A stretch of DNA of 64,000 bases, taken from the NCBI RefSeq assembly GCF_003991195.1, contig NZ_RCWL01000005.1, forward strand, positions 197,078 through 261,077, in the 5' to 3' direction. The translations under genes and the position numbers were made by a program. The notes under the pieces are model-generated. The model ran no database searches, was not told the origin of the DNA, and saw nothing but the letters and a program-made list of their open reading frames with translations. Each line of letters opens with the position of its first letter. Position 1 is the stretch's first letter. The stretch is from Gynurincola endophyticus. Its GTDB lineage: Bacteria; Bacteroidota; Bacteroidia; Chitinophagales; Chitinophagaceae. Shown here piece by piece: positions 10 to 24,515 of the stretch.

Positions 10-2691
10 TTGAGCAATTCAGATTTTGAGTTCTCTATGGCTGATACCAATAGTGGCAGTATTACTTTCACCGAGGCAGGTGTGGGTAACAATCTTGCAC
101 TTACGGAAGAAGAATTGCTCACAAACCTCAACAAAGTTCAGACGGAAAATGAGCTAAGAGAAGACGAAATATCACCTGCCATTGAAAAGCTTTGGTACAA
201 TGAAGACGCATCCGTAAAAGGCGTTCTGGAAGGTAAAACGGTAGTAACCGAGTTTCCCAACTACTCCGTAGAAATGGAAACCGGAACAGGCAAAACCTAT
301 GTGTATCTCCGTTCTGTTTACGAACTCAACAAGGTGTATGGCTTTAAGAAGTTTGTAATTGTAGTTCCTTCCGTGGCTATCCGTGAAGGAGTTATCAAAT
401 CCCTCCAAATCACCTTCGATCACTTTCAGGAAATCTACGAAAATCAACCTGCGGATTACAAGGTCTATGATTCAGGCCGTTTGTCAGACTTGGGCAATTT
501 TGCCAAAAGCAACGCCATACAAATTTTAGTAATCAATATTGATTCCTTCACCAAAGATGCCAACGTCATCAATCAGGTAAGAGAATCAGGCATAAAGCCC
601 ATAGAGTACATTCAGAAATCCAATCCGATTGTGATTATAGACGAGCCGCAGAATATGGAAACGGATATTCGAAAGCGAGCTATTGCCAATCTAAACCCCC
701 TATTTACACTGAGGTATTCTGCTACACACAAAAACCTTTACAACCTGGTCTATAAGCTTGACCCGGTGAAGGCGTATGATTTAGGCTTGGTAAAGCAAAT
801 TGAGGTTGATTCCGTTATAGCCCGAAACGATAGTTCAGGAGCCTTTATTAGTGTAGATGGTTTCCGTATGGCTAAGAAATCAGTAACTGCCAAGGTTTCA
901 ATATTTGTCAATGAAAAAACAGGTGTACAGAAGAAACAAGTTTCCGCAAATGTTGGAGACGACCTTTATAAGCTTTCTAAAAATTGGGACATATACAAGG
1001 ACGGCTATGTAATCAATGAGATAGATGCCGACAATCAGTTCATTGAATTTTCAAGTGGTCAAATTGTCTATCAGGGTCAAGCCGTAGGGGGTCTTACCGA
1101 CCAGATACTTAGGGAAATGGTAGATGCCACGGTAGAGAACCACTTCAAGAAGGAGAAAGAGTTGCAGGGCAAAGGAATCAAGGTCTTATCAATCTTTTTT
1201 ATCGACCGTGTGGCAAACTACCGTGAGTATGATGATAGCGGAAACACCGTACAGGGGAAGTTTGCCGAATGGTTTGAAGAAAGCTATACCAAATGGCAAA
1301 GTATGCCTGCTTACAGGGGTTTAATGAGCTTCAAAGCTAAAGACGTGCATGATGGATATTTCAGCCAGGATAAAGCAGGTAAATACAAAGACACCAAAGA
1401 AACTCGAACTACCAAAGCTGATGATGATACCTTCAACCTAATCATGCGAGATAAGGAAAGGCTATTGGATGAAAAAGTGCCTCTCCGATTCATTTTCAGT
1501 CACTCCGCATTGCGTGAAGGTTGGGACAATCCCAATGTATTCCAAATCTGTACGCTTAACGAAACCAAGTCGGATATAAAGAAACGACAGGAAATCGGAA
1601 GAGGTCTCCGCTTATGCGTTGACCAAACCGGAGCAAGAAACCTTGACCGTGCTATCAATAGGCTTACTGTCATCGCCAATGAAGCCTATGAATCATTCTC
1701 TAAAGCCTTACAAAAGGAAATAGAGGAAGATTGTGGCGTGAAGTTCGAAGGCCGTATCAAAAATGCAAGAGCAAGAACAAGCGTAAAACTCAAAGACAAA
1801 TGGATGGAGGATGCGCTATTCCTTGAGCTTTGGGAGAAAATAAGAGCTAAAACAGAATATAAAGTTGATTATAGCACCGAAGAGCTAATTGCAAATTGTG
1901 TGGCTGCATTGCAAGCAATGCCCCCTATCGAACGTCCTGTAATCTACCGTGAAAAGAATGTAGCAAAATTCGTTAGGGATGCCAAAGGCAAGCTGATTGA
2001 ATTAGGCGGAGAGCAGAAAGGCTCAAAGGAGAAAATGGTAAAGGACACCAATTATGAAATCCCTGATTTCATTGCTTATATCCAGTCTAAAACAGAGCTT
2101 ACCCGAGATACCATTACCCAAATCGTATTGAACTCAAACCGATTGGGCGAAATCTTTAACAACCCTCAGTTATTCATGGATAGCGTGGTACGCATCATCA
2201 AACATGAATTTGACCGAATCAAGATCAATGGCATCCAATATGAAAAGATTGCCGGACAGGTCTATGAAATGAAGTTGTTTGAATCCGCAGAAATTGAGCA
2301 GTATTTAGAAAACCTGATAGAGGTTAAGAAACAAGCCAAAACGCTTTACAACTATGTGGCCATTGATTCACTCAGTTCACCGGAACGCAGGTTTGCCGAA
2401 GATTGCGAAAACAGGGATGATATACTTTTCTATGTAAAGCTTCCAAGAACATTTGTGGTCAAAACTCCAATTGGTCCCTACAATCCTGATTGGGCATTGA
2501 TTAAGAAAGAGGACGGTGAAGAAACCAAAATCTACTTTGTAGCTGAAACCAAAGACCCTAAAGCAGCAAAAGACCGCACCTTATTAAGAGATAGCGAGCG
2601 ATTGAAAATAGCATGTGCAGAAAAGCATTTTGAAGTAATAGATCATGTGAATTACCGTGTAGTTGGCTCAGTGAGTGATTTGAAAGTTTGA
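10..2691 (+). CDS. Type III restriction Res-like SF2 helicase fused to C-terminal PD-(D/E)xK nuclease (probably 5-prime partial; frame open to window edge)
   Basis: Walker A METGTGKTYV; motif II IIDEPQN; motif VI QEIGRGLRL; C-terminal PD-(D/E)xK YNPDWAL...VAETK; reading frame open upstream of position 10, listed start is TTG. Confidence 0.7.
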   Translation: MSNSDFEFSMADTNSGSITFTEAGVGNNLALTEEELLTNLNKVQTENELREDEISPAIEKLWYNEDASVKGVLEGKTVVTEFPNYSVEMETGTGKTYVYLRSVYELNKVYGFKKFVIVVPSVAIREGVIKSLQITFDHFQEIYENQPADYKVYDSGRLSDLGNFAKSNAIQILVINIDSFTKDANVINQVRESGIKPIEYIQKSNPIVIIDEPQNMETDIRKRAIANLNPLFTLRYSATHKNLYNLVYKLDPVKAYDLGLVKQIEVDSVIARNDSSGAFISVDGFRMAKKSVTAKVSIFVNEKTGVQKKQVSANVGDDLYKLSKNWDIYKDGYVINEIDADNQFIEFSSGQIVYQGQAVGGLTDQILREMVDATVENHFKKEKELQGKGIKVLSIFFIDRVANYREYDDSGNTVQGKFAEWFEESYTKWQSMPAYRGLMSFKAKDVHDGYFSQDKAGKYKDTKETRTTKADDDTFNLIMRDKERLLDEKVPLRFIFSHSALREGWDNPNVFQICTLNETKSDIKKRQEIGRGLRLCVDQTGARNLDRAINRLTVIANEAYESFSKALQKEIEEDCGVKFEGRIKNARARTSVKLKDKWMEDALFLELWEKIRAKTEYKVDYSTEELIANCVAALQAMPPIERPVIYREKNVAKFVRDAKGKLIELGGEQKGSKEKMVKDTNYEIPDFIAYIQSKTELTRDTITQIVLNSNRLGEIFNNPQLFMDSVVRIIKHEFDRIKINGIQYEKIAGQVYEMKLFESAEIEQYLENLIEVKKQAKTLYNYVAIDSLSSPERRFAEDCENRDDILFYVKLPRTFVVKTPIGPYNPDWALIKKEDGEETKIYFVAETKDPKAAKDRTLLRDSERLKIACAEKHFEVIDHVNYRVVGSVSDLKV

Positions 2692-5600
2692 AACAACCAG
2701 CATTGACCCGTTTTGATATGGCAACAGAGAAACAATTTTTAACCAGGCTACAGGAGATTAAGCAAAGAGACGTGGAAGTTTTGCTTAAAAAGGCGTACCG
2801 TGGTATTTGGGAAACAGCAATTAAGAAGTATTCCGACAGTGCCCACTTCGTTTATGAATTGCTGCAGAACGCAGATGATACAAAAGCCACTTGGGTTGAT
2901 TTTCGCCTTGAAGAAGACGGACTTTGGTTTAAGCACAATGGCTCTGTTCGCTTCTCCATATCAGACCCGGACAATGAAGATGAAGATTCAGAAACTGGCA
3001 ACCTTGGCCATATAAACGCCATTACTTCCATTGGCAATTCAACCAAGATTGATGAACAAAAAATCGGAAAGTTTGGAATAGGCTTCAAAGCGGTTTTTGC
3101 TTACAGCATGTCTCCGCACATTTATGATGATAATTTCAACTTCAAACTGGAAAACTACATTGTGCCCAATGAAATTGAATCCTTGAATGGCCAGAGGGCA
3201 GCAGGTGAAACAGTTTTCTACTTCCCTTTTAATCACATTTCAAAGTCGCCAGAGGATGCCTATACCGAGATTGAGGACAAATTAGATTCACTCTTTCAAC
3301 CTATTTTATTCCTTACCAATCTTCAAAAGATAACTTGGAAATCCAATGAGAAAGAAGGCATCTATTCAAAGCGAGCATTAAAAACAGAACAGTTCGACAA
3401 TATCCGAGCTGAGTTAATGGAGGTTGAAAGCGTAGAAAATGAAGTCAATAAAAAAGAATTGATATGGTTATTCTCTACTGGCGTTTCACACAAGCAGCTT
3501 AAATCCCACCACCGCATCTATGTGGGTTTCTTTGTTCTCGATCAAAAGGAACTGGAAACTGGATATACCTATGAAGCATTTTGCTTCTTTCCAACCAAAG
3601 AAGAAACCAAGTTAGGATTTGTTATTCAGGCCCCATTCCTTTTGACAGATAGTAGAGAGGGAATAAAAGCAGGTGAGCAATGGAATGTGGAAATCATGCA
3701 GCTTGCGGCAAAGCTTGCTGCCAATTCTTTACCGATACTCAAAACCATTGGTGAAAGGGATAAAACCTACCTACTCAACGACAGTATTTTAGAACTGATT
3801 CCATACAAGGAAAGTGATTTTTCAGACGTAGGTAGTAAAGCGAAAATTTCATTCAAACCCTTCTATACCGAAATCCTAAAGAAGTTTCAAGCCGACCAAT
3901 TACTGCCTGGCAGAAATGGGAAGTACTACAAAACTGCAAAGTCATATTGGGCATCAGATCCCGAGTTAGCAGAACTCTTTTCCGACCAACAAATCAGCAA
4001 GCTAATGGGCAACCCAGATTCAGGATTGGTGTTCGTAAGCAAGGGACAGAAGCAACTTAACCAAGCGAATAAGACCTTAGAAAGCTATATCAATTCAATC
4101 ATTAACGACACCTTAGACCCTAAAAAACTTCTGAGGAGAATTGATGCTTCTTTCATGGAAGCACAATCAGATGAATGGTTATTGAAATTCTATGCCTATT
4201 TGGGAGGTCGAAAATCTCTTTGGGACGATAAAGAGAAGCTTGCTCAAAAACGACCAATCCTGCTAAATCAAGACAGAAAGGCCGTTGTACCCTTCAATGA
4301 TGATTTAACAGCACCAAATATTTTTCTACCTTCTGAAAGGGCAACAAGCTACGATACCATTTACAAGCCATTTACAGAGGATGAAGAAGCCCTGGACTTC
4401 TTCAAGGGTTTGGGTATTGGTAAACCCGACTTACGAGCTGAAATCTTCAAGACCATAATTCCGCAATACAAGAATGGGTTTAACTATGATGATAAGGACA
4501 AAATCTTAGCCCACTTCGATTCTTTCTTATCCTACTATGATGCTTGCCCGGCTTCTCTCCAAAGTGACTATCTCGATAAGCTCCAAGAGACTTGTTTCAT
4601 AGCATCCCGAAAAGCCAGTGACCCTGATACAATTTACTTTTGCTTCCCTGAGTCCGTTTACATTCCAAGTGAAAAGCTCAACAAATACTTTGCTAACGCA
4701 AAGGAGGTATATATTTTGGATGAAGATTACTATTTGGATTTTATCCATAGTCCTCGCAAAAGCTCGTTCTATTCATTTCTTTCGGCCTTAGGTTGCAGCA
4801 ATCAACCCCGTTTGATAGATAGGGAATTAGAATCCAACTACGAGAACAAGGAAAGATTTGGTCTTGAAGAAATTGAAGTATCACAAACCTATGTCTCTAA
4901 TCAAACTATTACAGATACCATTCTGGAAGGAATAGAGGAAGCAGTATCAAACATCAATCCCGAACTATCAGCCCTGATTTGGGAATACATGTTATTCCAT
5001 GTACATGGTAAGTCGTCTTACTCGCTCGAATCAAGTATCATGGGCAACTTTCGATACGTCCCCAAATGGAACCAATATCCAAAGTCCCAAAAGTTTGAAT
5101 CCACACTATCATCTATTCTCAAAAATGATAAATGGCTATATGATACAGAGGGCAATTTAAAATCAGCATCAGAAATTCAAAGAGAAGACCTAAACGAAAT
5201 CTACACTTCACAGGATTTTGACATTTCTGCATTCCTTGAATTTTTAGGAATTGAAAGCCCTGAAGATGAATTAGACCTCTCCGAGGAACAACGAGCAGCT
5301 TACCTGCTTGGCAAAAAACTACAAGAGGAAGGAATCACTGAAGAAGAATTAGCAGAGGCATTGAGCATGATAAAGGCTAAAAAGAAGTCCGCAGGTGCTC
5401 AGGGCAATCCCAATACTGATGAAGAAGAAGACTTCATGGATGATGCCATTGAAGACACCTTAGACCGCCTTAAAAAGGGAATCAAAAAGAAGCGAAAGGC
5501 CAGAGCTGAAAATCAAGATGAAGAAACTCAAAAAGAAGAGCAGGAATCTCCTGAATCAATGGCAGATCAGGATGAATACACAAAACCTTCTGTTGACCTT

Positions 5601-7535
5601 CAAAAGAAGATTGACAAGCTAAAGGAACAGACAGAAGCTCAAATTGAAGACCTTACCCGAATTGAGAAACTGAACGAGATTGTTGATGAATCTGAAATGT
5701 ATTCCTATGCTTGGTTCAAAGCTTTGCTTGAACTGGAATACCTGAGTAGTTCAGAATCCAACACTCAAGGAAAAGAAATATCAATCCAATTCACTAAAGC
5801 AGAAAAAGAACCGGGTACAGAAAGGACATTGATTCTCAAGCATCCGAACAGATATATCCCTCAATCCATTGAGGATATTGGAGACCTGCAAATTCGCTTG
5901 TATCATGGTGAAGAATCCAAGACCGTAACCGTGGAGGTTGTGAGTGTTAAAGAATATACCCTTCGGGCAAAGCTGAAAAAGTCTGCCGACATTTCAGAGA
6001 TTGACCTATCTAAGGTAAACCGAATAGTCATTGACATAAAGAATCCTGTTTTCATTCTTGAAGAACTTAGAAAAGCCTTCAATCAACTTGGCTTAGAGGA
6101 TGATTATAATCTACAGCAAAACCTTCCAGAGGATATTCGATTCATATTTGGCCCTCCCGGTACAGGTAAAACAACCTATCTCGCAACCAATGAGATTATA
6201 CCTCTTATGCAGCAGGAAGAAAACCTCAAAGTGCTAGTACTTACACCAACCAATAAATCAGCAGACGTTCTTACAAAGCGTATTATTGAAAAAATGGGTG
6301 ATGATGAAACCTATCACCATTGGCTTCTCCGCTTTGGAAATACAAGTGATGAATCACTGGAAAATAGCTCGGTTGTAATTGATAAAGCGTTCGACATTAG
6401 AACCAAGCCCAAGAATACCACAATAACCACAATTGCGAGATTTGCTTACGACTATTTCCAACCCGAAATCCATGATGAACGCCTGCACCTGAAATTTCTT
6501 GAATGGGACTACATTATCATTGATGAAGCTTCAATGGTGAACTTGGCCAGTATAGCTTACGTCCTTTATCAAAAGCCAGATGCAAAATTTGTAATAGCAG
6601 GAGATCCTTTCCAGATTCAACCAATTACACTTATTGACCATTGGAAGGATATGAATATCTACAGCATGGTCAATCTCGACAGATTCGTAGAGCCAACAAC
6701 TGTTCCCCATGAATTTGAAATAGTTAACCTACGCAAGCAATATAGGGCAGTTCCCACCATTGGAAATGTTTTCAGTCACTTCACTTACAATGGCATTCTC
6801 GAACACCATAGAACAAGTACAGAGCAAAAGCCATTGACCATATCCGGCTTTGATTTCAAGGACATTAACATTATCAAATTTCCAGTAGCAAAGTTTGAAA
6901 GCATTTACAAGCCAAATACGCTTAACAAATCAAACTATCAGGTCTATTCAGCTTTGTTCACGGTTGAGTTCGCCCAGTCACTTGCTTTTCAGATTCAATC
7001 AAGCCACAAAGACAAATTCAGAATTGGAATCATTTGTCCTTACAAGGCTCAAGCTACTCTAATTGAAAAGCTCCTTGCTCAACAATTTGAAGACACTGAT
7101 AAGGTAGAAATCCTTATCGGGACTATTCACGGCTTCCAAGGTGATGAATGTGATATTATCATTTCGATTTTTAACCCGCCATACTCGATAAGCAAACACC
7201 CGGGTATGTTCCTCAATAAGCAGAACATACTCAATGTATCCATTAGTCGGGCAAGAGATTATTTATTCATCATAATGCCAGACGACAACACGCAGGATAT
7301 TGAGAACCTATATAAAATCAAGAAAATAGAAAGATTGATTTATCGCCATGCTCCTAACAATCACTCAGTTTACGAATCCACGGAGATTGAGGAAATTATG
7401 TTTGGCAGCGATACCTACATTTATGACAACTCCTTCGCTACTTCTCACCAAACTGTAAATGTGTATTCAAAACCAGAGCGGAAGTATGAAGTCCGTTGTG
7501 AAGAGGTAGCTGTTGACGTTCAAATTAAACAATGA
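2688..7535 (+). CDS. Large multidomain protein: N-terminal sacsin/GHKL-type (HATPase_c-like) ATPase, acidic/basic coiled-coil linker, C-terminal Upf1/DNA2-like SF1B helicase (AAA_11/AAA_12-like)
   Basis: N-box ELLQNADD and G2-box GKFGIGFKAVF near N-terminus; SF1B motifs FIFGPPGTGKTT (I), IIIDEASMV (II), VIAGDPFQIQP (III), LRKQYRAVP (IV), IGIICPYKAQ (V), GTIHGFQGDECDIII (VI); start overlaps stop of upstream gene by 4 bp (TTG at 2688; alternative ATG at 2718). Confidence 0.7.
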   Translation: MKQPALTRFDMATEKQFLTRLQEIKQRDVEVLLKKAYRGIWETAIKKYSDSAHFVYELLQNADDTKATWVDFRLEEDGLWFKHNGSVRFSISDPDNEDEDSETGNLGHINAITSIGNSTKIDEQKIGKFGIGFKAVFAYSMSPHIYDDNFNFKLENYIVPNEIESLNGQRAAGETVFYFPFNHISKSPEDAYTEIEDKLDSLFQPILFLTNLQKITWKSNEKEGIYSKRALKTEQFDNIRAELMEVESVENEVNKKELIWLFSTGVSHKQLKSHHRIYVGFFVLDQKELETGYTYEAFCFFPTKEETKLGFVIQAPFLLTDSREGIKAGEQWNVEIMQLAAKLAANSLPILKTIGERDKTYLLNDSILELIPYKESDFSDVGSKAKISFKPFYTEILKKFQADQLLPGRNGKYYKTAKSYWASDPELAELFSDQQISKLMGNPDSGLVFVSKGQKQLNQANKTLESYINSIINDTLDPKKLLRRIDASFMEAQSDEWLLKFYAYLGGRKSLWDDKEKLAQKRPILLNQDRKAVVPFNDDLTAPNIFLPSERATSYDTIYKPFTEDEEALDFFKGLGIGKPDLRAEIFKTIIPQYKNGFNYDDKDKILAHFDSFLSYYDACPASLQSDYLDKLQETCFIASRKASDPDTIYFCFPESVYIPSEKLNKYFANAKEVYILDEDYYLDFIHSPRKSSFYSFLSALGCSNQPRLIDRELESNYENKERFGLEEIEVSQTYVSNQTITDTILEGIEEAVSNINPELSALIWEYMLFHVHGKSSYSLESSIMGNFRYVPKWNQYPKSQKFESTLSSILKNDKWLYDTEGNLKSASEIQREDLNEIYTSQDFDISAFLEFLGIESPEDELDLSEEQRAAYLLGKKLQEEGITEEELAEALSMIKAKKKSAGAQGNPNTDEEEDFMDDAIEDTLDRLKKGIKKKRKARAENQDEETQKEEQESPESMADQDEYTKPSVDLQKKIDKLKEQTEAQIEDLTRIEKLNEIVDESEMYSYAWFKALLELEYLSSSESNTQGKEISIQFTKAEKEPGTERTLILKHPNRYIPQSIEDIGDLQIRLYHGEESKTVTVEVVSVKEYTLRAKLKKSADISEIDLSKVNRIVIDIKNPVFILEELRKAFNQLGLEDDYNLQQNLPEDIRFIFGPPGTGKTTYLATNEIIPLMQQEENLKVLVLTPTNKSADVLTKRIIEKMGDDETYHHWLLRFGNTSDESLENSSVVIDKAFDIRTKPKNTTITTIARFAYDYFQPEIHDERLHLKFLEWDYIIIDEASMVNLASIAYVLYQKPDAKFVIAGDPFQIQPITLIDHWKDMNIYSMVNLDRFVEPTTVPHEFEIVNLRKQYRAVPTIGNVFSHFTYNGILEHHRTSTEQKPLTISGFDFKDINIIKFPVAKFESIYKPNTLNKSNYQVYSALFTVEFAQSLAFQIQSSHKDKFRIGIICPYKAQATLIEKLLAQQFEDTDKVEILIGTIHGFQGDECDIIISIFNPPYSISKHPGMFLNKQNILNVSISRARDYLFIIMPDDNTQDIENLYKIKKIERLIYRHAPNNHSVYESTEIEEIMFGSDTYIYDNSFATSHQTVNVYSKPERKYEVRCEEVAVDVQIKQ

Positions 7536-7595
7536 TTAAACACCCGTTAAAAGAAAAAATGAAAACTTAATATCGAATTAAAACCCTCGTTCATA

Positions 7596-9695
7596 ATGGC
7601 AAAGCACTGTTTCAACATACTAACATTCAATCATCCGAGCGAATCGCTCACCTTCTATTTTTCCGAGAAGGAGCAAGAAGGAACTACACGAATTTATCAT
7701 TCATTGGTTCCTGATGAGGTCATTGATAAGTATGCAGAACAGGAACATTACTACACTTCATTTTGCCAAGAAAAAGAAGGGTTTATTCCGGTTACTAAGC
7801 CAACTACACCAACCTATGAGAAAATCACTAACGAAGAAGGAATTGAAAAATCAGTTCAGGTTTCCAATTCCGCATTGTCTTCATCCATTCTCAAACGTTA
7901 CTACAATTCACTAATTCATAACCATTTCAAGTCAAAGGGCTGTTTGGTCAAACCTAACTTTGTCAGCGATACAGAAGTTTGGTTGCCAAGCGATACACAA
8001 GACAAGGAAGGGATATACAAAACCTTTGACCGTTTTTCATTGAAGGTGCAGTTCAGAACAGTTTCCAATAGTCTTGAATTATTGGTCACATTTGAAGGCA
8101 AGTCAAAGATTTTTAAAACTCCTGTATCAGAACTTTTTGAAGAAGTACCTGTAAGGGCATTCAATTGGGTGGTCTATGAAAAAGGACTACACCGCTTTGA
8201 TGAATTGCCAGATGATGGGAAAAGAAATTACGATAAGGTTTATCCTGTTTGGAATTTTGAAATAAGGGATGCTTTGCACCAGGAGACAGAAGCCCCGGAC
8301 AAGACGAACAAATACAGGAAGTTCAAAACGGCCATTGATAAATTTTACAGGGAGCAGCTTAATGCAGCCGAGTTCAAGGCCATCATTCCGCTTTCATCTA
8401 AAGGGTTTATTACAGTTGATGAAGTCCGCATCGGTTCAATTGAAAAGTCCAGCAACAAACTCGTATTTGGAAATCAAAAGCTGCACCATGTACCGTATTA
8501 TGGCATTACAGAAAATGGTCCTTTCGAGTTAAGCCCATCATCAAAGATTCATTTCTTTTTTATTCTCCATGAAGATGATAGAGAAGTAGCTGCCAAGATT
8601 CACAACTACTTTAATGGCAAACTCAACGGCTTTAGAGGGCTATCAAAATTCATTCATACACCGTATCATCCAGATAAAGAACTCGCAATCTATTTCAAGG
8701 ATAGGGATAACCCTTGGCCGGAACTGTATGAGCAAATCAATGACAAGGACTTTGATACCGACATTCAGCACATAGCTATTTACATTTCCCCAATCAGCAA
8801 GAATGTTCCAGTCAAATCTCAGAGGTTGATTTACTACAAGCTGAAAGAGCTACTATTGAAAAAAGGAGTTTCCTCTCAGGTGATAGATCCTGACAAAGTG
8901 ATTACCAACGACAAGTATCATTTCAGCTTGCCAAACATCGCAATAGCCATTCTCGCAAAGCTCAATGGCACTCCGTGGAGGTTGGACACAAAGCTGAAGA
9001 ATGAATTGATTGTTGGAGTTGGAGCATTCAAGCACACAGAAGTTGACATCCAATATATCGGCAGTGCTTTCAGTTTCTCCAATACAGGGAAATTCAACCG
9101 ATTTGAATGCTTTCAGAAAGACCAAACAAAAGAGTTGGCAGGTTCAATTCTAAGAGCAGTTAAAGACTATGTGAATGTAAATACAGGAATCAGAAGGCTT
9201 GTAATTCACTTCTACAAAGACATGAGTAGAGAGGAAGTAGAACCGATTGAGAACGGCCTGAAAGAATTGGACTTGAACATTCCGGTCTTTATCGTCACCA
9301 TCAACAAAACGGAATCATCCGATATTGTTGCCTTTGATTTGGACTGGAAAGATTTGATGCCCGTAAGTGGCACTTTTATCAAATTAGGCTACAACAGATT
9401 TCTACTTTTCAACAATACCAGGTATTCAGCATCAGAGTTCAATTTCAATGATGGATTTTCATTTCCAGTAAAGCTCAAGATAAATTGCTCCAATCCTGAA
9501 TTGGTTGATGATTACAAAACAGTAAAGGAGCTTATCGATCAAGTATATCAGTTCAGTCGCATGTACTGGAAGTCAGTAAGACAACAAAATTTGCCCGTTA
9601 CAATCAAGTACCCTGAAATGGTTGCAGAAATGCTCCCTTACTTTGAAGGCAACGAGATTCCTGATTACGGTAAAGACAATCTTTGGTTCTTATGA
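7596..9695 (+). CDS. Prokaryotic Argonaute-like protein, long form with catalytically inactive PIWI (long-B-like)
   Basis: MID motif LIYYKLKELLLKKGVSSQVI...NIAIAILAKLNGTPWRL (Y-x3-K...Q...K-LNG, the Argonaute 5-prime-phosphate pocket / KLGG motif); position of first catalytic Asp reads IVGVGAF instead of GxDV; ~380 aa N-terminal region compatible with N-L1-PAZ-L2. Confidence 0.65.
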   Translation: MAKHCFNILTFNHPSESLTFYFSEKEQEGTTRIYHSLVPDEVIDKYAEQEHYYTSFCQEKEGFIPVTKPTTPTYEKITNEEGIEKSVQVSNSALSSSILKRYYNSLIHNHFKSKGCLVKPNFVSDTEVWLPSDTQDKEGIYKTFDRFSLKVQFRTVSNSLELLVTFEGKSKIFKTPVSELFEEVPVRAFNWVVYEKGLHRFDELPDDGKRNYDKVYPVWNFEIRDALHQETEAPDKTNKYRKFKTAIDKFYREQLNAAEFKAIIPLSSKGFITVDEVRIGSIEKSSNKLVFGNQKLHHVPYYGITENGPFELSPSSKIHFFFILHEDDREVAAKIHNYFNGKLNGFRGLSKFIHTPYHPDKELAIYFKDRDNPWPELYEQINDKDFDTDIQHIAIYISPISKNVPVKSQRLIYYKLKELLLKKGVSSQVIDPDKVITNDKYHFSLPNIAIAILAKLNGTPWRLDTKLKNELIVGVGAFKHTEVDIQYIGSAFSFSNTGKFNRFECFQKDQTKELAGSILRAVKDYVNVNTGIRRLVIHFYKDMSREEVEPIENGLKELDLNIPVFIVTINKTESSDIVAFDLDWKDLMPVSGTFIKLGYNRFLLFNNTRYSASEFNFNDGFSFPVKLKINCSNPELVDDYKTVKELIDQVYQFSRMYWKSVRQQNLPVTIKYPEMVAEMLPYFEGNEIPDYGKDNLWFL

Positions 9696-9944
9696 TGATT
9701 ACGGAACACCCACCGCACATTTGCCAACCCGCACCAATGTGCTTCCAGTAGGTTCATTCCGGTCGTTCGTTCCTCACTCTCTTCATTCACCCACTTCCAG
9801 CACCGCACAGCAAGAGTAGCCCGTTATTCCATTCCGCTGCGCTACATTCCATACCGTGCCACACTTGCTTTTCCCAACGCACCCCCCAACGCAGGTAAAG
9901 CGGTGTTCGTCAGTCGTTCCGTTTTGTTCCGCAAAAACATATCT

Positions 9945-9981
9945 GCAAGGGTAAAATGCACTCCCTTCGGTCGCCCTTGCA
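9945..9981. repeat. Hairpin element, 8-bp stem TGCAAGGG/CCCTTGCA with 21-nt loop containing CCCTTCGG
   Basis: Read directly: tgcaagggtaaaatgcactcccttcggtcgcccttgca. Confidence 0.6.
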
Positions 9982-10927
9982 CATACCGTTCACTTACCAG
10001 TTCGTTTGCGCTCCAGTAGGTGCTCACTCACTGCCGTTCACTTGTTTTGCTTCACACACTCTCTCCTTCCTCACTCGCAGCTATTTCATCCCCCCAAACC
10101 CCTTCTATGGTGTTCGCTAAACTCACAATATTTTTTATTGGGGGTCTGCCGCTGCTTATTGTTTTTGCTCGCCTGCGGGTCGCTGCGGGCTGATCGGGCT
10201 GTCATGTTTTTTGCTTTCCCCTATGTGCTTTCAGTCGCTTCGTTTCAGTCATTCGTTCCTCATTCCTTCAACTCAGCCACTTTCAGCACCGCTCACAAGC
10301 GTAGCTCTTTCACTACACTACACGAGCCAACGTACCGTCATTCCGCAATCTGCCTGCAATCCTTCTCCAATGGGTTTGTACTCCAATCAAAAAATACAAA
10401 CCCAACCAATGCTATTGCAGGCAGTTATTGCTCCATTCCCTTCCAATAATCGTTTCGTTTCGTTCAGTCGCTACCCTTGCCTTTGCCGACCCTGATGCAA
10501 AAAAACACGCCAGCCCTGCCGTAAACGGTAGGCGTCTGCCGCCCTCATTCTTCGGGCTTTTGCAGCCACCACCCTTGCTCCGCTCGCAGGCGGCTCGCAG
10601 AAATGGCTTCGCCTTGGTTTACCTGCGTTTCCCGCTTTTTTCCCACCGCACAATTGAGTACATTCGTTAACAATGAAAGAACTATTTGAAGACTTTTATT
10701 ATTTAATATTCCCCAGGGATGAAGAAGGTGTTTACAAGACAGACACCGACAGTCCTTTATGGGTTAAAATTCTGGTTGTTGCTTTCATCGGGTTTATGTG
10801 TTTCATGCTTGCAATAGCATCTTAATAGAAACAGATTCCAGTTTTCTAATCCTTCAATTCGACCTTAACTCGGGTCAATAAATAACTCAAACATAAAGCA
10901 AAGTTACAGGCGTGCGGATGCGAGAGC

Positions 10928-11003
10928 TGCAAGGGTTCGCTTCGCCTGTTTGGGAAAAAAATCTCCACCCTACGGGTAGTATTTTTTTCCCACAGCCCTT
11001 GCA
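10928..11003. repeat. Composite nested-hairpin element, copy 1 (outer TGCAAGGG/CCCTTGCA stem; inner GGGAAAAAAA...TTTTTTTCCC stem; central CCCTACGGG mini-hairpin)
   Basis: tgcaagggttcgcttcgcctgtttgggaaaaaaatctccaccctacgggtagtatttttttcccacagcccttgca. Confidence 0.6.
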
Positions 11004-11291
11004 TCAATCGCACCGTCCTGTAGTGTGAGGGTATTATGTTTAAGTTATTATTCAGAGTCCGTTTCGGCAGCCGGTGGTTGTTGGCGGGCGTTCGCACCTC
11101 AGGTCGTCCGTTCCATGCAGGCGTTCAGCGTTTCGGTATCACTGATTATACGCTGCGTGTCTTTTGGTTCGAGTTGTGCCTTTCAGAGCTTCCTTTTTAG
11201 GGGGCTCTTTTTTTTACTCGTACAGGGAAAATTTTAAAAAGAGAATAGCAAAGATAGGCGGGTTCGCACATGCCCAACGCACTTTCGGACA

Positions 11292-11364
11292 GTCAAGGTC
11301 AAGCCCTACGGGTTTTGAAAAAAATCTCTACCCGAAGGGTAGTATTTTTTCCAAAAACCTTGAC
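11292..11364. repeat. Composite nested-hairpin element, copy 2 (outer GTCAAGG/CCTTGAC; inner TTTTGAAAAAAA...TTTTTTCCAAAA; central CTACCC-GAA-GGGTAG)
   Basis: gtcaaggtcaagccctacgggttttgaaaaaaatctctacccgaagggtagtattttttccaaaaaccttgac; same orientation as copy 1, ~365 bp downstream. Confidence 0.6.
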
Positions 11365-11430
11365 AGCCGAGCCTCACCCGCCTGAAAGACAGCTTTCTCT
11401 TTTCTTTTTTTCCCTTTTTTCTTTTCTCTT

Positions 11431-11916
11431 TTGAAAAAATATATGCGAAGCGCAGCGAGCAAAACTTTAATGGCTCACTGTATGAAATCGTTTCGTATCA
11501 AAACACACCGACTGGAAAGCAGCTACCAACAGCCGCACTTCTTTATCCTGAATAAAGGATTGAACAGCGGGAAACCGCTCAACCAAGCTTGCCCGAATTG
11601 CTTTGTTTGCCTCACCGACAACCAAGAGGACAGGGAATTTCTCTTTTGGCTATGCTTTGGATTGTGGAGGTCAAAATCATTTCACTATCTCCTGAAAGGC
11701 TCAGTGATTCCATTTGTGACTATTGATGAAATCCGAAAGCTGATTCGGGAAAGCTCCACCAAAGCAAGCTGCAAAGACCAGGCATTTCAGAAGGCAATTC
11801 AAGCCCTTCAACTACTCGATACCAACGAGCAAAAAATCAAGGTCACACTAAAGATGATTGATACTGCCAGACAAGCCATATTTTATGACTTGATGAAAGA
11901 AACAGGAGCAGGATAG
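11431..11916 (+). CDS. Hypothetical protein
   Basis: 161-aa ORF preceded by polypyrimidine tract; no recognisable motifs; true start uncertain. Confidence 0.3.
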   Translation: MKKYMRSAASKTLMAHCMKSFRIKTHRLESSYQQPHFFILNKGLNSGKPLNQACPNCFVCLTDNQEDREFLFWLCFGLWRSKSFHYLLKGSVIPFVTIDEIRKLIRESSTKASCKDQAFQKAIQALQLLDTNEQKIKVTLKMIDTARQAIFYDLMKETGAG

Positions 11917-12094: not shown

Positions 12095-12736
12095 ATGGGA
12101 AAAATTAATCAAGGTATTCTCGGTGGCGTATCAGGCCAAGTAGGGAATGTAATCGGTGGAACTTGGAAGGGCATCGATTACCTGCGCATCAAACCTTCCA
12201 GTGTAGCGAACCCAAGAACTGAAGGTCAGGTTGACCAGCGTTCTAAATTTTCAACTGTCCTAAGGTTCTTGCAACCAATGACAGACTTCCTGAGAGTCGG
12301 TTTCAAGTTGTATGCAAACCGTATGACCCAATTCAATGCGGCCATGTCTTACAACCTGAATAATGCAGTTACCGGAGCTTATCCAAACTTCATGATTGAC
12401 TATGCAAGTGCATTGGTCACTCGTGGTAACTTGACAGGTGCGGCCAACGGTGCAGCCACTTCTCCAAGTGCTGGAAACGTAGAAGCAACCTGGACAGACA
12501 ACTCAGGAAGCGGAAGTGCTCAAGCAACAGACAAAGCTCTGATTGCTCTTCTGAACACTACCCGAGGGGAAGCAGTGTTCACCACTGCGGGACCAGCAAG
12601 GTCTGCCGGATCAGCGACCATTCCAGTGCCTTCTGAGTACTCAGGAGAAGACGTTGAAGTCTTCTTAGGTTTTGTATCAGAAGACGGAATTAAAGTCGCC
12701 AAAAGCGTTTATTTAGGCTCTGTAACAGTTGCGTAA
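12095..12736 (+). CDS. Hypothetical protein (resembles a Bacteroidota-restricted conserved family with MGKINQGILGG...NPRTEGQ N-terminus; Gly/Ser/Ala-rich C-terminal half)
   Basis: 213-aa ORF with good coding appearance, followed by an intrinsic terminator. Confidence 0.5.
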   Translation: MGKINQGILGGVSGQVGNVIGGTWKGIDYLRIKPSSVANPRTEGQVDQRSKFSTVLRFLQPMTDFLRVGFKLYANRMTQFNAAMSYNLNNAVTGAYPNFMIDYASALVTRGNLTGAANGAATSPSAGNVEATWTDNSGSGSAQATDKALIALLNTTRGEAVFTTAGPARSAGSATIPVPSEYSGEDVEVFLGFVSEDGIKVAKSVYLGSVTVA

Positions 12737-12788: not shown

Positions 12789-13188
12789 TGCCCATACCCC
12801 TCGATTTTTCCTTTATTATCGCTTAGTTTGACATTCCTAAGCGTTTTTTGTTGCTAATGCGTTTCTACACTTTTAGCAATACACTGAATTACAGTAAGTT
12901 AAAAGCAATTAAAATATTTTGTATCGGGAAGTAAAATCAAACTTCTTAGAAAAGTCGAATAATATCACAAAAAGAGCTAAAATAATTTATTAGCTATTAT
13001 ACCACTTTTTCGTTTACATAAATCGTTAGGTTAATAAATTGCCTATAATGATTTTTCTAATGTTTAGTGTTGTTAATGCAATTATGTATATAAAATGTAA
13101 AAAAAAGTACAGAGTTAAAATAGATGTAAGAGATGATAAAATGTACTATTGGCAATAGTAACAATCAAATAAATTATTACCTCAATAA

Positions 13189-20685: not shown

Positions 20686-21570
20686 TTAGAATATAAAGGA
20701 CGTGATATTTCTGAATTTTTCATAAACAATGTTTGCTGCATCGTCATCTCCTGTATTAACTACATCATCAGAGATTGCATTTGTAATTTCCTCAGTACTA
20801 ACATTTCTCTTCACGAAATTTTTCATTTCATAAATGATTTTACCAAAGTCTGCATCTCTTACACCTACTTCAATTTTCAGAATACCTCCGTTTTCTTCAA
20901 AATAGAAGGGGTGTAAAAGGTTAATGCCTTTGTTAATATCAGCAGCTACGTAAAGCTCAAGTTTTTGTACAACAACTCTGTCGAACTCAGGTTTGGCAGT
21001 ATAAGTTACTTTCTTTACGGGATATCCTTCAATAGAACTGGTTTCTCCTTCGGTTCTTACATAAACACCCTCTCCGGTGGTGAGGGTAATGCCTGTTTCA
21101 GGAAGAAAATCTGACTCATAGCTAAATGACATGCTTTGACCGTTACCAAAAGTTCTTGCAACATATACATTTCCTTTAGCAGTTTCGGTATTCCAGATGT
21201 TTTGAGTTTCATGAGCAATTCCTCTACCCACTAAACGAACAATATTGCCTTTTATATAAATATCATTGCTGAAAATTGGTGATCGGTAAAGATGATCAAC
21301 AATACTCCAGTTGTCTTCGAACAGATTGCCCAGTGTATTATTTTCTTCTGATGTCAGATTACTCCAGGCATCATCGTACGCATATGCGGGATGTTTGCTG
21401 CTATTTTCAATACTGTTAAAGAATTTCGCTACCAATGGGTTTGTAAAAGTAACTTCCAATTCTATTTTTCCTTCCTGAAAGTTTGCATTGTTGTTGTCGT
21501 CGTCTTTGTCTTTCGTACAACCAACTAAAGAGATAATCGCTAAGAGAAATAAATAAGAAAGTTTTCTCAT
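20686..21570 (-). CDS. Lipoprotein, paralog 1 of tandem array
   Basis: Lipobox LVGCTKDKDDD; conserved KGNIVRL, GIAHE, LHPFYF, GGILKIEV, C-terminal ITSFIF. Confidence 0.7.
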   Translation of the reverse strand: MRKLSYLFLLAIISLVGCTKDKDDDNNNANFQEGKIELEVTFTNPLVAKFFNSIENSSKHPAYAYDDAWSNLTSEENNTLGNLFEDNWSIVDHLYRSPIFSNDIYIKGNIVRLVGRGIAHETQNIWNTETAKGNVYVARTFGNGQSMSFSYESDFLPETGITLTTGEGVYVRTEGETSSIEGYPVKKVTYTAKPEFDRVVVQKLELYVAADINKGINLLHPFYFEENGGILKIEVGVRDADFGKIIYEMKNFVKRNVSTEEITNAISDDVVNTGDDDAANIVYEKFRNITSFIF

Positions 21571-21663
21571 GGATAAAGTTTAATGATGTTGATAAATGTT
21601 TTGTAGCTAATAAACGGATACTCACACACTTATATTGTAATTGAAGATGGCATGTATAAAAAA

Positions 21664-21687
21664 TAAAAGCTACCTGCAGGTAGCTTT
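21664..21687. terminator. Perfect palindromic hairpin, probable bidirectional terminator
   Basis: aaaagctacctgcaggtagctttt flanked by A/T runs. Confidence 0.6.
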
Positions 21688-21699
21688 TATTTTTAGATT

Positions 21700-22593
21700 T
21701 TATACAAAGAAGGAGGTAATACTTCTGATTTCCAGATAAAGTGTTTCGAACTCTTCTGGTGTTTGGGGGTTAAGTGTTTCGGCCGGTGTTGAGTTGATTA
21801 ATTCCTGTGCGCTTACTGCTCTTTTTTCTACTTTCTTTAATTCGTAAACGATTTTACCAAAATCAGTTTTAATCATTTCAACTTCAATTTTAATTACTCC
21901 GGCTGCTTCATTGGTAATAAACGGATGCATTAAATTGATTGACTTATCTAAAGAAGAGGCAACATAGACATCAATCTTTTTAATTTCATAAAAATCCTGT
22001 ACAGCAGTTTTTACTGTGTAAGTTATTTTTTTAGCTGTAATACCTTCGATTGTGATCGATTCATTGGTTTCTGTTCTGGTAAAATCATCCGGATCTACAC
22101 TTACAGATAAACCTGTTTCTCCCAGGATGTTTTGTTCGTAGCTGAAACCAAGACTATTGTCATTCATTAAACTTCCAACATAATAATTGCCTTTAATGGC
22201 GTCATTGTTCCATAAGTTTTGTATTTCATGAGCAATACCTCTTGAAACACCTCTTACCTGCGCTCCCTTAATGAAAATTTCATTTTTTACTATCGGCAGC
22301 CTTACTAAATAACCGGCTATTGTTGGGTTATTTGAGAACAAAGAAGATAGTTGGTTGTCTTCTTCACTGGTTAAATTGTCCCACGAATCATAATACGCCT
22401 GCCATGGTAAACTGTTACCGGTTTTAATATAACTAAAGAATTTATTTACAACGGGGTTGCTAAAACTGATGTCCAGTTCAAGTCTTGCTTCCGTAATTTC
22501 TGAAGTTTGAGAGTTGTCATCGCCGTCTTTGTCTTTCGAACAACTGGCAAAAGAAATTAATGCCAATAAAAGTAGATAAGATAGTTTTTTCAT
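21700..22593 (-). CDS. Lipoprotein, paralog 2 of tandem array
   Basis: Lipobox FASCSKDKDGDD; shares motifs with paralog 1 (KNEIFIKG, GIAHEIQN, MHPF, IKIEV, ITSFFV). Confidence 0.7.
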   Translation of the reverse strand: MKKLSYLLLLALISFASCSKDKDGDDNSQTSEITEARLELDISFSNPVVNKFFSYIKTGNSLPWQAYYDSWDNLTSEEDNQLSSLFSNNPTIAGYLVRLPIVKNEIFIKGAQVRGVSRGIAHEIQNLWNNDAIKGNYYVGSLMNDNSLGFSYEQNILGETGLSVSVDPDDFTRTETNESITIEGITAKKITYTVKTAVQDFYEIKKIDVYVASSLDKSINLMHPFITNEAAGVIKIEVEMIKTDFGKIVYELKKVEKRAVSAQELINSTPAETLNPQTPEEFETLYLEIRSITSFFV

Positions 22594-22661
22594 CTATATT
22601 TTTTTGAAACAGATAAATGTTTTTTATTAAAACGAATGTGTATTATTCTTTTTTGCGCTTA

Positions 22662-23555
22662 TTAACGAAGGAATGACATGAGGTTTAATAATTTTTCATT
22701 TATCTCTAATTTCGTATCAAAATCGTTGTCTGTGATATGTTCCGGAGCTACTTTAATATCCAATTCGCCGGCAGTTACAGCTCTTGCTTCTACTTTGGTT
22801 ACTTCATATATTAATTTACCCATATCACTATTTTTGAAGTCTATTTCCATTTTAACAATGCCATGCTCTTCATTAGTATGCATGAAGTGTAAAATGTTTG
22901 CTTCTTTTCTGATCTGTTCAGAAACGTAAATTTTTATATTAGAAGTGAAATCGTACTGTCCGATTGTTTTTAGTGCGTAATTGATCACTTTTGTATTGAA
23001 GCCAAAAACAGTAGCGTTTTCATTCAACTCAGATCTGTCATATAATTCTTCTGTACTAATTGGGCTCAGCGTGCTGATTCCTTTAGCAAATTCCAGATCA
23101 AAAGTGAAGGAAAGGTTATTTTCGAATTCATTCTCTATATAGTAACTACCTGTTCCTTTGCGTATGTCCCATGCTTTTTCGATGTTATAAGATAATGAAT
23201 GCGTATTGCTTCTGGTATGATTATCTGAAATGAAAATTTCATTTTTTATAATTGGCAAAGTGTAAATAGCGAAAAATCCCATCGGATTATCGTCACGAAA
23301 GTTATTGATCGTTTGCTGCTCTTCATCCGTCAAAAGTTCGAACGCTTCTTCTATAGCCTGATCTGAACGTTTATCACTTTCTTTAATATAGTTTACATAC
23401 TTGGCTAAAGTAGGGTTTGTGAAAGTGTAAGAGTATTCAATTCTACCCTGAACGTAATTTTCTAAAATAGGTGCCTGGTCATCGTCACCTTTGTCTTTCG
23501 TGCAACTGGTAAATGAAACTATTGCTAATAGTAACAGATAAGAGAGTTTCTTCAT
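22662..23555 (-). CDS. Lipoprotein, paralog 3 of tandem array
   Basis: Lipobox FTSCTKDKGDDD; KNEIFISD, GIVKMEI. Confidence 0.7.
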   Translation of the reverse strand: MKKLSYLLLLAIVSFTSCTKDKGDDDQAPILENYVQGRIEYSYTFTNPTLAKYVNYIKESDKRSDQAIEEAFELLTDEEQQTINNFRDDNPMGFFAIYTLPIIKNEIFISDNHTRSNTHSLSYNIEKAWDIRKGTGSYYIENEFENNLSFTFDLEFAKGISTLSPISTEELYDRSELNENATVFGFNTKVINYALKTIGQYDFTSNIKIYVSEQIRKEANILHFMHTNEEHGIVKMEIDFKNSDMGKLIYEVTKVEARAVTAGELDIKVAPEHITDNDFDTKLEINEKLLNLMSFLR

Positions 23556-23639
23556 AGTTTTTTTGTTGATAAATGTCGTTAAATGAATGTGAACTATACG
23601 AAAAACCCCAAACCACGAGATGTGTTGGGGGTTCGTAAA

Positions 23640-24515
23640 TTATCTTGGAAGAGAAATGATCTGGTGAATTTTTTCACTGATTTCATTTCTTGCACCGTCT
23701 TCTTTTGAGTCAATTATATGAGCAGATGTTGAGTTGGTTAACTCATCATCGCTAACTGCTCTGTTCTCTACTTTCGCCACTTCATAAATCATACTGCCTA
23801 ATGTGTTGTTAGAATATTCCAGCTCTATTCTGATAATACCATTTTCTTCCTGAGTATATACAGGATGAAATGCGTTGTACATTTTGTCAATAGCAGTTGA
23901 AGTATGTACATGAATGGCTTTTAAGCCTTCACTCATACCTTCTTTCAATGTGTAAGTAATTTTTTTGGCAGGTAAACCGTTAAGAGTGGTGATAATAGAC
24001 TCCTCGTTTCTGTCGTAATAACCTGTTTTAAGCGGTAGATTTGTAATTAATCCTCCTAGTAATTCTAAATCGTAATCGAATGAAATATCATCGTCTCTTC
24101 TGTTGGTAATAAAATAATTACCCTCACTGGTGGTGTTATTCCATTTTTTCTCTACAGTGTAAGTGATAGAGGTAGATACCATTCTGAATTCGTCGGCTTT
24201 GAAGAAAATTTCATTTTTTACAAAAGGCTTCATAAAGAAGTCTTCCAGTAAAAACCAGCTTTCCATGCCTAATTCATCTAAAAATTCCAGTTCTTCAGCA
24301 GTCAAACCCAGTCTGGCTTCTATAATAGCTTCGGGCCCTACTTTATTACTTGCTTTCATTAACTGAAAAAATTTGTTAACGGTGGCATTCGTAAAGCTCA
24401 TTGAAAGTTCTATTCTTCCCTGATCGGTTACGGTTGGAGTATCACCGTCTTTGTCTTTCGAACAACCTACAAAAGTAATAACCGAAATAAACAGCAAATA
24501 GAAAATTTTTCTCAT
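23640..24515 (-). CDS. Lipoprotein, paralog 4 of tandem array
   Basis: Lipobox FVGCSKDKDGD; VKNEIFFKA, GIIRIELE. Confidence 0.7.
   Translation of the reverse strand: MRKIFYLLFISVITFVGCSKDKDGDTPTVTDQGRIELSMSFTNATVNKFFQLMKASNKVGPEAIIEARLGLTAEELEFLDELGMESWFLLEDFFMKPFVKNEIFFKADEFRMVSTSITYTVEKKWNNTTSEGNYFITNRRDDDISFDYDLELLGGLITNLPLKTGYYDRNEESIITTLNGLPAKKITYTLKEGMSEGLKAIHVHTSTAIDKMYNAFHPVYTQEENGIIRIELEYSNNTLGSMIYEVAKVENRAVSDDELTNSTSAHIIDSKEDGARNEISEKIHQIISLPR

Follow-up and report, generated by a model that had tools for sequence, protein, structure and literature searches.

The open reading frame (ORF) at positions 7596–9695 of a 64 000-nucleotide stretch of the Gynurincola endophyticus genome (contig NZ_RCWL01000005.1; the whole stretch is hereafter called the window) is predicted to encode a full-length, catalytically dead prokaryotic Argonaute (pAgo) of the long-B type. 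Its sequence and surroundings place it in an already known kind of long-B pAgo, the published subclade associated with the VirE-N protein AgaPP. On the best explanation that we can offer, to which we give a probability of about 60 per cent, this pAgo is the product of a near-core gene of an integrated mobile element and binds DNA on behalf of that element without a dedicated effector. In the identity of the gene and its genomic context as described below, taken together, we have high confidence.

Identity of the Argonaute and its guide pocket

The Argonaute identity of the ORF is supported by a Pfam match to the Piwi domain over amino acids (aa) 412–679 (3.2e-14), by the PADLOC pAgo model PDLC02385, which spans aa 1–699 (E = 8.7e-291), and by NCBIfam matches. 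Only three PDB sequences, all from long-B members, match with E below 0.01, namely AfPiwi (1.1e-16), RsAgo (2e-14) and EcAgo (1.6e-7). The next matches are animal Piwi proteins (E about 0.05), and none of the long-A pAgos reaches E 1 in this search. The fold search gave matches to RsAgo and PIWI proteins. The PIWI domain with RNase H fold that defines the Argonaute/PIWI superfamily is present, and an N-terminal lobe on the same polypeptide makes the protein a long, not a short, pAgo. The Pfam scan gave no PAZ match, which is consistent with the reduced PAZ* of the long-B clade. No APAZ, TIR or SIR2 neighbours were found near the gene by Pfam, PADLOC or neighbour clustering. A short pAgo system (SPARTA, SPARSA, SPARDA or SPARHA) is ruled out, the pAgo being full length and without an APAZ-effector partner. 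A scan for sigma-70 promoters and terminators around the gene, with a tool that does not cover Bacteroidota promoters, gave nothing above the shuffled expectation.

A first-pass annotation of the letters had described this ORF as an Argonaute with an intact YKQK-type MID pocket, and the description holds. All the motifs that it quoted (Y-x3-K, Q, AKLNGTPW and IVGVGAF) are found in the ORF: Y413-x3-K417 sits in IYYKLKE, Q428 lies 15 residues past Y413, AKLNGTPW (aa 454–461) includes K455, and IVGVGAF (aa 472–478) includes G476. Y413, K417, Q428 and K455 align with the pocket region of AfPiwi and RsAgo; AKLNGTPW is identical in RsAgo, where it is followed by VVGMG against IVGVG in the window pAgo. 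The pocket consensus of long pAgos is YKQTNK (PMC6299218). Conservation was assessed in 190 distinct family sequences of 47–98% identity. Y413, K417, Q428, N447, K455 and G476 are invariant (190/190), position 540 is Y in 172 members and F in 18, position 674 is E in 185, and each of L696, W697, F698 and L699 at the C-terminus is kept in at least 187. Strong purifying selection acts on the guide-anchoring apparatus, and the inactive catalytic site goes back to the ancestor of this family.

The catalytic tetrad of the window pAgo reads G/E/Y/E (G476, E504 or E513, Y540, E674). The D-to-G change noted earlier in the first RNase H motif is indeed present, with G476 at the Asp 1 position, but it is not a loss specific to this gene: the state is shared across long-B pAgos, and the second aspartate is lost as well (Y540). 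An acidic residue is kept at the fourth position, E674 here, E in RsAgo and D700 in EcAgo; around it, YSERIA of the window pAgo aligns with YPEMVA of RsAgo. The glutamate finger is ambiguous (E504 by MAFFT, E513 by hhalign) and its loop is poorly modelled, the RsAgo finger falling in a loop insertion relative to the window pAgo. Because both aspartates are missing, this ambiguity leaves the dead-slicer conclusion intact. In these alignments, the GxDx, RDG and Y(A/L)(H/D) motifs of TtAgo and of the human AGO2 PIWI region stand out clearly. Neither the MAFFT nor the hhalign alignments revealed an alternative complete DEDX tetrad elsewhere in the C-terminal domain. With the pocket intact and the slicer site dead, guide binding without slicing, as first proposed, is a sensible prediction: the pAgo can probably hold a small guide but not cut.

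All long-B pAgos lack the DEDX tetrad, are nearly exclusively of the YK type and usually carry a reduced PAZ* (Ryazansky 2018, PMC6299218). The window pAgo shows the first two of these features, a lost DEDX tetrad (PIWI*) and a YK-type MID motif. An intact pocket combined with a dead slicer is the defining signature of the known long-B clade and no peculiarity of the window gene; it is textbook for these proteins and alone adds nothing new. Song et al. 2023 divided the long-B pAgos by associated orthogroup into four subclades, with a nuclease (BPAN), a SIR2 protein (BPAS), a transmembrane protein (BPAM) or the VirE-N protein og_54, and left the last of these unexplained (PMC10620215). The window pAgo does not fit the BPAN, BPAS and BPAM types, in which a nuclease, SIR2 or transmembrane effector gene follows at once in an operon of two or three genes: downstream of it lie 1.7 kb of non-coding DNA and then DUF6943. 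A 2025 NAR paper identified the VirE-N protein AgaPP as a primase-polymerase that works with a downstream PriCT-DUF3987 helicase, and described a mobile element, integrated in Bacteroidota genomes, whose conserved parts are the integrase, AgaPP, the helicase and a long-B pAgo, the pAgo lying 2–8 genes downstream amid changeable defence genes (PMC11724360).

The Argonaute gene in its mobile element

The protein search returned 526 relatives of the window pAgo. The genome scan gave at least 575 pAgo loci, 80 of which were used for the neighbourhood work (individual loci are cited as L001 and so on). All the relatives come from Bacteroidota, except one metagenome-assembled genome labelled Proteobacteria. 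The pAgos that are 95–98% identical to that of the window (L001–L007, L081) occur in Algoriphagus, Sphingobacterium, Marivirga and Roseivirga. Identity this high between hosts of different families and classes of the phylum points to a recent horizontal spread of the element.

Clustering of the flanking ORFs and Pfam matches established a co-directional layout. Next to mnmE come a tyrosine integrase, DUF6617, HTH_17, a BT4734-like/VirE-N protein (AgaPP), a PriCT_2-DUF3987 protein (AgaPH) and an XRE helix–turn–helix (HTH) protein; these are followed by a variable segment, the pAgo, a second variable segment, a non-coding region, DUF6943 and DUF6266. Upstream sequence of at least 9 kb was available for 67 loci. 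The gene for AgaPH is located upstream of the pAgo, on the same strand, in 42 of them, that for the XRE HTH protein in 48 and that for AgaPP in 32, and none of the three was found downstream. An integrase is found at most 10 kb upstream of the pAgo in 15 of the 67 and essentially never downstream, and DUF6266 lies downstream in 23 of 63 loci and upstream in none. The reciprocal test started from AgaPH in metagenomes, where 41 loci had a downstream sequence of at least 9 kb; in 24 of these a pAgo homologue of 33–99% identity occurs within 10 kb downstream. The only strong genetic linkage of the pAgo is that with the replication module of the mobile element.

Nucleotide homology to the loci with 95–98% identical pAgos starts at 7593–7596, at the ATG, and stops at 9695–9699, at the stop codon. 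It resumes at about 9724–9737 in the backbone region, which in other loci lies kilobases farther downstream, past inserted cargo. The pAgo ORF is thus an exact homology block between variable flanks, that is, a conserved anchor between two cargo-insertion sites. In the window, the upstream slot is occupied by a type III restriction system and a sacsin-ATPase/SF1 helicase gene, and the downstream slot is empty. The defence genes that precede the pAgo vary: in relatives they include type I and III restriction–modification systems, RhuM, DUF5655 and others.

All-against-all clustering of the flanking ORFs revealed no conserved neighbour: on neither side does any type exceed 18 of the 81 loci. A Fur-like regulator, found in 18 loci, is the commonest immediate downstream neighbour. 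Other frequent neighbours are HsdR, RhuM (PADLOC PDC-S05), DUF5655 (PDC-S18), a DUF262-type restriction protein (PADLOC Orf5/HEC-06) and Fur- or AraC-type regulators of heavy-metal efflux cargo. They are defence candidates in their own right or regulators of metal efflux. At least six loci have the pAgo immediately between the XRE HTH gene and genes for metal efflux, and no possible effector is adjacent in them. Heavy-metal cargo begins right after the pAgo stop codon in L001, L002, L008, L016, L081 and others; its genes code for a Fur-like regulator, DUF6660, a fused CzcA/OEP RND pump, an adaptor protein, a CDF transporter and a P-type ATPase. RND efflux pumps had been found in 14% of long-B operons, with no explanation (Ryazansky 2018, PMC6299218). 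The association is explained by the pumps being cargo that shares the same element, inserted after the pAgo stop.

The downstream backbone of the window shares 92–97% nucleotide identity with AgaPP-type element loci. Its apparently non-coding region has a GC content of about 46%, against about 38% nearby, and contains a 76-nt direct repeat (9734–9809 and 10220–10295) and two hairpins of about 90 nt (10918–11012 and 11283–11372), which have the same architecture, different outer-stem sequences and z-scores of −6.5 to −7.4. This region may provide the primase-polymerase and helicase of the element with an origin or a priming site, serve as an oriT, or encode a non-coding RNA. Scans of the entire window against Rfam and for tRNA genes gave no match, and hence no tRNA attachment site is visible in it. 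A 50-codon ORF (10674–10826, plus strand) with a hydrophobic C-terminal stretch lies inside an AT-rich stretch (10630–10875) that is common to L005 and replaced by other sequence in most related elements; the stretch may mark a further small insertion site of the backbone. Homology to L004, L005, L014 and L015 ends at one point, about 12934–12937, just past DUF6266, and ordinary chromosomal genes, including a two-component system and a methyltransferase, lie beyond about 12937. The right end (att site) of the element probably lies at this shared point, with chromosomal genes after it. The integrase end abuts mnmE in many relatives. The features of the window are collected in table 1.

Table 1. 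Positions of the Argonaute gene, its domains and key residues, and neighbouring features in the window.
Feature	Position	Strand	Evidence or remarks
Type III restriction endonuclease (Res), upstream cargo	10..2691	+	Pfam ResIII, RE_endonuc; PADLOC REase_III 2e-271
1615-aa protein: sacsin-like GHKL ATPase / Tiamat (TmtA)-like region / SF1 Upf1/DNA2-like helicase	2688..7535	+	
pAgo gene, 699 aa + stop	7596..9695	+	single ORF from ATG to stop; Pfam, PADLOC, fold, nucleotide homology
N-terminal lobe (N, L1, PAZ-like, L2), about aa 1–300	7596..8495	+	boundaries approximate
MID domain, about aa 315–440	8538..8915	+	boundaries approximate
PIWI* domain (RNase H fold, inactive), about aa 441–699, C-terminus LWFL	8916..9692	+	Pfam, alignments
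5'-phosphate pocket codons	Y413 8832–8834, K417 8844–8846, Q428 8877–8879, N447 8934–8936, K455 8958–8960	+	
G476, catalytic Asp 1 position (TtAgo D478)	9021..9023	+	MAFFT and hhalign agree
Y540, catalytic Asp 2 position (TtAgo D546, human AGO2 D669)	9213..9215	+	MAFFT and hhalign; human AGO2 by MAFFT
E674, fourth tetrad position (TtAgo D660, human AGO2 H807)	9615..9617	+	MAFFT
Conserved, apparently non-coding, C-rich region	9700..11430	.	92–97% identity to L001–L006, L009, L012
DUF6943 gene	11431–11916	+	Pfam, element backbone
DUF6266 gene	12095–12736	+	Pfam, element backbone

Farther along the window, four tandem paralogous genes (20686–24515, minus strand) code for proteins of about 295 aa with 32–46% pairwise identity and lipoprotein-type signal sequences; the one copy tested gave no Pfam match.

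Possible roles and alternative explanations

The large gene that precedes the pAgo codes for a 1615-aa protein matching Pfam SACS, AAA_11 and AAA_12 and PADLOC TmtA (7.7e-57) and MkoA (2.8e-30). Its ORF starts at TTG, with a 4-bp overlap with the Res stop; the 100% identical Gynurincola endophyticus database protein is five residues shorter. By tblastn, no homologue of this protein adjoins the pAgo in the 80 loci, those with 95–98% identical pAgos included, and the only match to its sacsin-ATPase-like N-terminal part is to three giant downstream ORFs. The helicase family, represented in Bacteroidota, Firmicutes and one archaeon, keeps to a length of about 1600 aa throughout. Two of them lie in loci without pAgo: in Elizabethkingia the order is HTH, type III Mod, a 252-aa gene, Res and then the helicase, and in Bacillus toyonensis the homologue lies in a McrBC/kinase island. 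A type III restriction system precedes the helicase in both Bacteroidota copies examined. The 1615-aa protein is independent cargo, perhaps a defence gene that acts by itself, perhaps an accessory of type III restriction–modification systems. As a dedicated partner of the pAgo we reject it, since it is absent from 80 of 80 loci and has homologues in pAgo-less ones. The earlier suggestion that interference must be delegated to partner proteins found no contextual support, either in this gene or in any other neighbour.

In L049, L065, L077, L026 and L062, the pAgo is directly followed by giant ORFs of 1282–2262 aa. Their N-terminus is sacsin-ATPase-like in L049, L065 and L077, and a separate SF1-helicase-like gene, coding for 600–780 aa, follows in L026, L062, L065 and L077. 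Such a pair may represent the fused window protein in split form. Found in 3–5 of 80 loci, the arrangement is too rare to indicate a dedicated link with the pAgo.

For the mechanism of the effector-free long-B pAgo that we favour, we tentatively propose, at slightly less than even odds, RNA-guided DNA binding without cleavage in the manner of RsAgo, in the service of the element. By analogy with RsAgo and EcAgo, the pAgo would load 5'-phosphorylated small RNAs from the transcriptome. Once loaded, it would bind complementary DNA of plasmids, phages and competing elements without cutting it. Interference would then come about through occupancy, with transcription or replication blocked, or through genetically unlinked nucleases, to the advantage of the element on which the pAgo gene resides. 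RsAgo itself represses plasmid genes.

Several points weigh against this reading. The window begins in cargo, with the integrase, AgaPP and AgaPH outside it, and membership of the element is judged from the downstream backbone and from the relatives. The long-B assignment draws on sequence matches, motifs and context. There is no pAgo within 10 kb in 17 of the 41 AgaPH loci, so that the gene is not strictly core. Both RsAgo and EcAgo have a downstream nuclease gene and the window pAgo has not, and the analogy may fail at the effector step; guide type, target type and interference for the AgaPP subclade would all be carried over from these two proteins.

The pAgo might instead serve the life cycle of the element, in replication, copy number control or excision, or by taking short products of the primase-polymerase as guides. 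We consider this unlikely. The constant order and strand of the module of integrase, AgaPP, AgaPH and HTH genes, which is the sole strong linkage, would suit such a role, as would the co-phylogeny with AgaPP and the integrase that has been reported for the pAgo (PMC11724360) and the conserved non-coding region with strong hairpins that adjoins the gene. Against this, the pAgo lies where the element keeps its cargo and defence genes, with restriction–modification systems and PADLOC candidates on its flanks; replication does not obviously depend on it, given the 17 AgaPH loci without a nearby pAgo; and nothing supports guides derived from the primase-polymerase. To our knowledge, moreover, every characterized pAgo acts against foreign nucleic acids. 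A role as a sensor for abortive infection, with an effector that is unlinked or lies at a distance (for example DUF6943, DUF6266 or a host nuclease), comparable to a BPAN, BPAS or BPAM system split by cargo, is distinctly improbable. All characterized long-B systems do use effectors (PMC10620215, PMC13535254), and DUF6943 and DUF6266 are conserved backbone genes found only downstream of the pAgo, which they follow with no cargo genes between in the window and in L015. However, a search of these two proteins as hidden effectors gave no PADLOC or PHROG match and no recognizable toxic domain, the non-coding DNA parts them from the pAgo by 1.7 kb even where cargo is missing, and the authors who described the AgaPP-associated pAgos judged effector-based abortive infection unlikely from the context (PMC11724360).

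A two-gene system similar to DdmDE, in which the guide-loaded dead pAgo would mark DNA and recruit the 1615-aa helicase to unwind or destroy it, is very improbable. It is true that the helicase gene ends only 60 bp before the pAgo gene and shares its strand, that the helicase carries defence-type domains (TmtA-like and MkoA-like), and that in three of the 80 loci the pAgo is directly followed by a giant sacsin-ATPase-like ORF, which in two of them (L065 and L077) precedes a separate SF1-helicase-like gene. These points are outweighed by the absence of helicase homologues beside any of the 80 pAgos, by a range of the helicase family that extends well past that of the pAgo, and by its pAgo-less copies in Elizabethkingia, behind type III restriction–modification genes, and in Bacillus toyonensis. 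The helicase belongs to SF1 and no nuclease domain was detected in it by Pfam, which sets it apart from DdmD, the conserved helicase-nuclease with which DdmE is paired. Furthermore, DdmE is not among the PDB sequence matches of the window pAgo at E up to 1, nor among its top fold matches. The loss of both catalytic aspartates would also be expected of a decaying, functionless relic of a former slicer. The conservation pattern effectively refutes that explanation: the 699-aa ORF is intact, at least 190 distinct full-length relatives keep an invariant MID pocket and the C-terminus, and the 95–98% identical pAgos in different families and classes speak of recent spread.

The role of the effector-less VirE-N/AgaPP long-B subclade is a question raised by both studies of it (PMC10620215, PMC11724360). 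What the window locus and more than 150 relatives add is that the pAgo ORF stands as a fixed point between two cargo sites of a widely transferred element, has no dedicated partner and is reciprocally linked with the replication module. If the pAgo does interfere with foreign DNA in an effector-free way, the known modes of Argonaute immunity would be broader. A more far-reaching version, to which we give only a small chance, is a truly effector-less, element-encoded Argonaute that silences competing replicons by pure guide-directed DNA occupancy; its guides might come from the primase-polymerase of the element or from transcripts of the hairpin-rich non-coding region. Such occupancy, if real, would be a mode distinct both from slicing and from effector-mediated abortive infection.

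Comparison with characterized Argonautes

RsAgo from Rhodobacter sphaeroides (PDB 5awh, 6d8a) is about 17% identical to the window pAgo and also has G at the Asp 1 position. It differs in having a predicted nuclease gene downstream (PMC10620215); its guide and target types are known, and no AgaPP-type element has been reported for it. EcAgo (EcBPAN, PDB 23wq) shows the same pattern of tetrad loss, with G492/E532/Q568/D700 (PMC13535254) against G476/E/Y540/E674 in the window pAgo. EcAgo recruits the downstream nuclease EcbAgaN in an 8:8 complex, whereas such a gene is absent downstream in the window and in 63 related loci. In both RsAgo and EcAgo, the two full-length long-B pAgos that have been characterized, 5'-phosphorylated small RNA guides from the transcriptome recognize DNA (PMC10620215, PMC13535254).

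AfAgo/AfPiwi (AF1318; PDB 1w9h, 6t5t), the best PDB sequence match across MID and PIWI, is likewise inactive with a YK-type pocket. It is truncated to MID–PIWI and pairs with a separate N-L1-L2 protein (PMC10954474), whereas the window pAgo has its own N-terminal lobe. The likeness to DdmE of the Vibrio cholerae DdmDE system is conceptual, an inactive pAgo beside a large helicase gene on a mobile island; the window helicase differs in being an SF1 enzyme that is not conserved with the pAgo.

The closest counterparts are the AgaPP-associated long-B pAgos, for example that of Seonamhaeicola sp. S2-3 (PMC11724360) and those of og_54 (PMC10620215). The relatives of the window pAgo have the same element layout, and both groups share a Bacteroidota host and the lack of a dedicated effector; the likeness to the Seonamhaeicola case is one of layout. 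The window differs from AgaPP loci in general by its cargo, the combination of a type III restriction system with a sacsin/SF1 helicase being specific to this copy.

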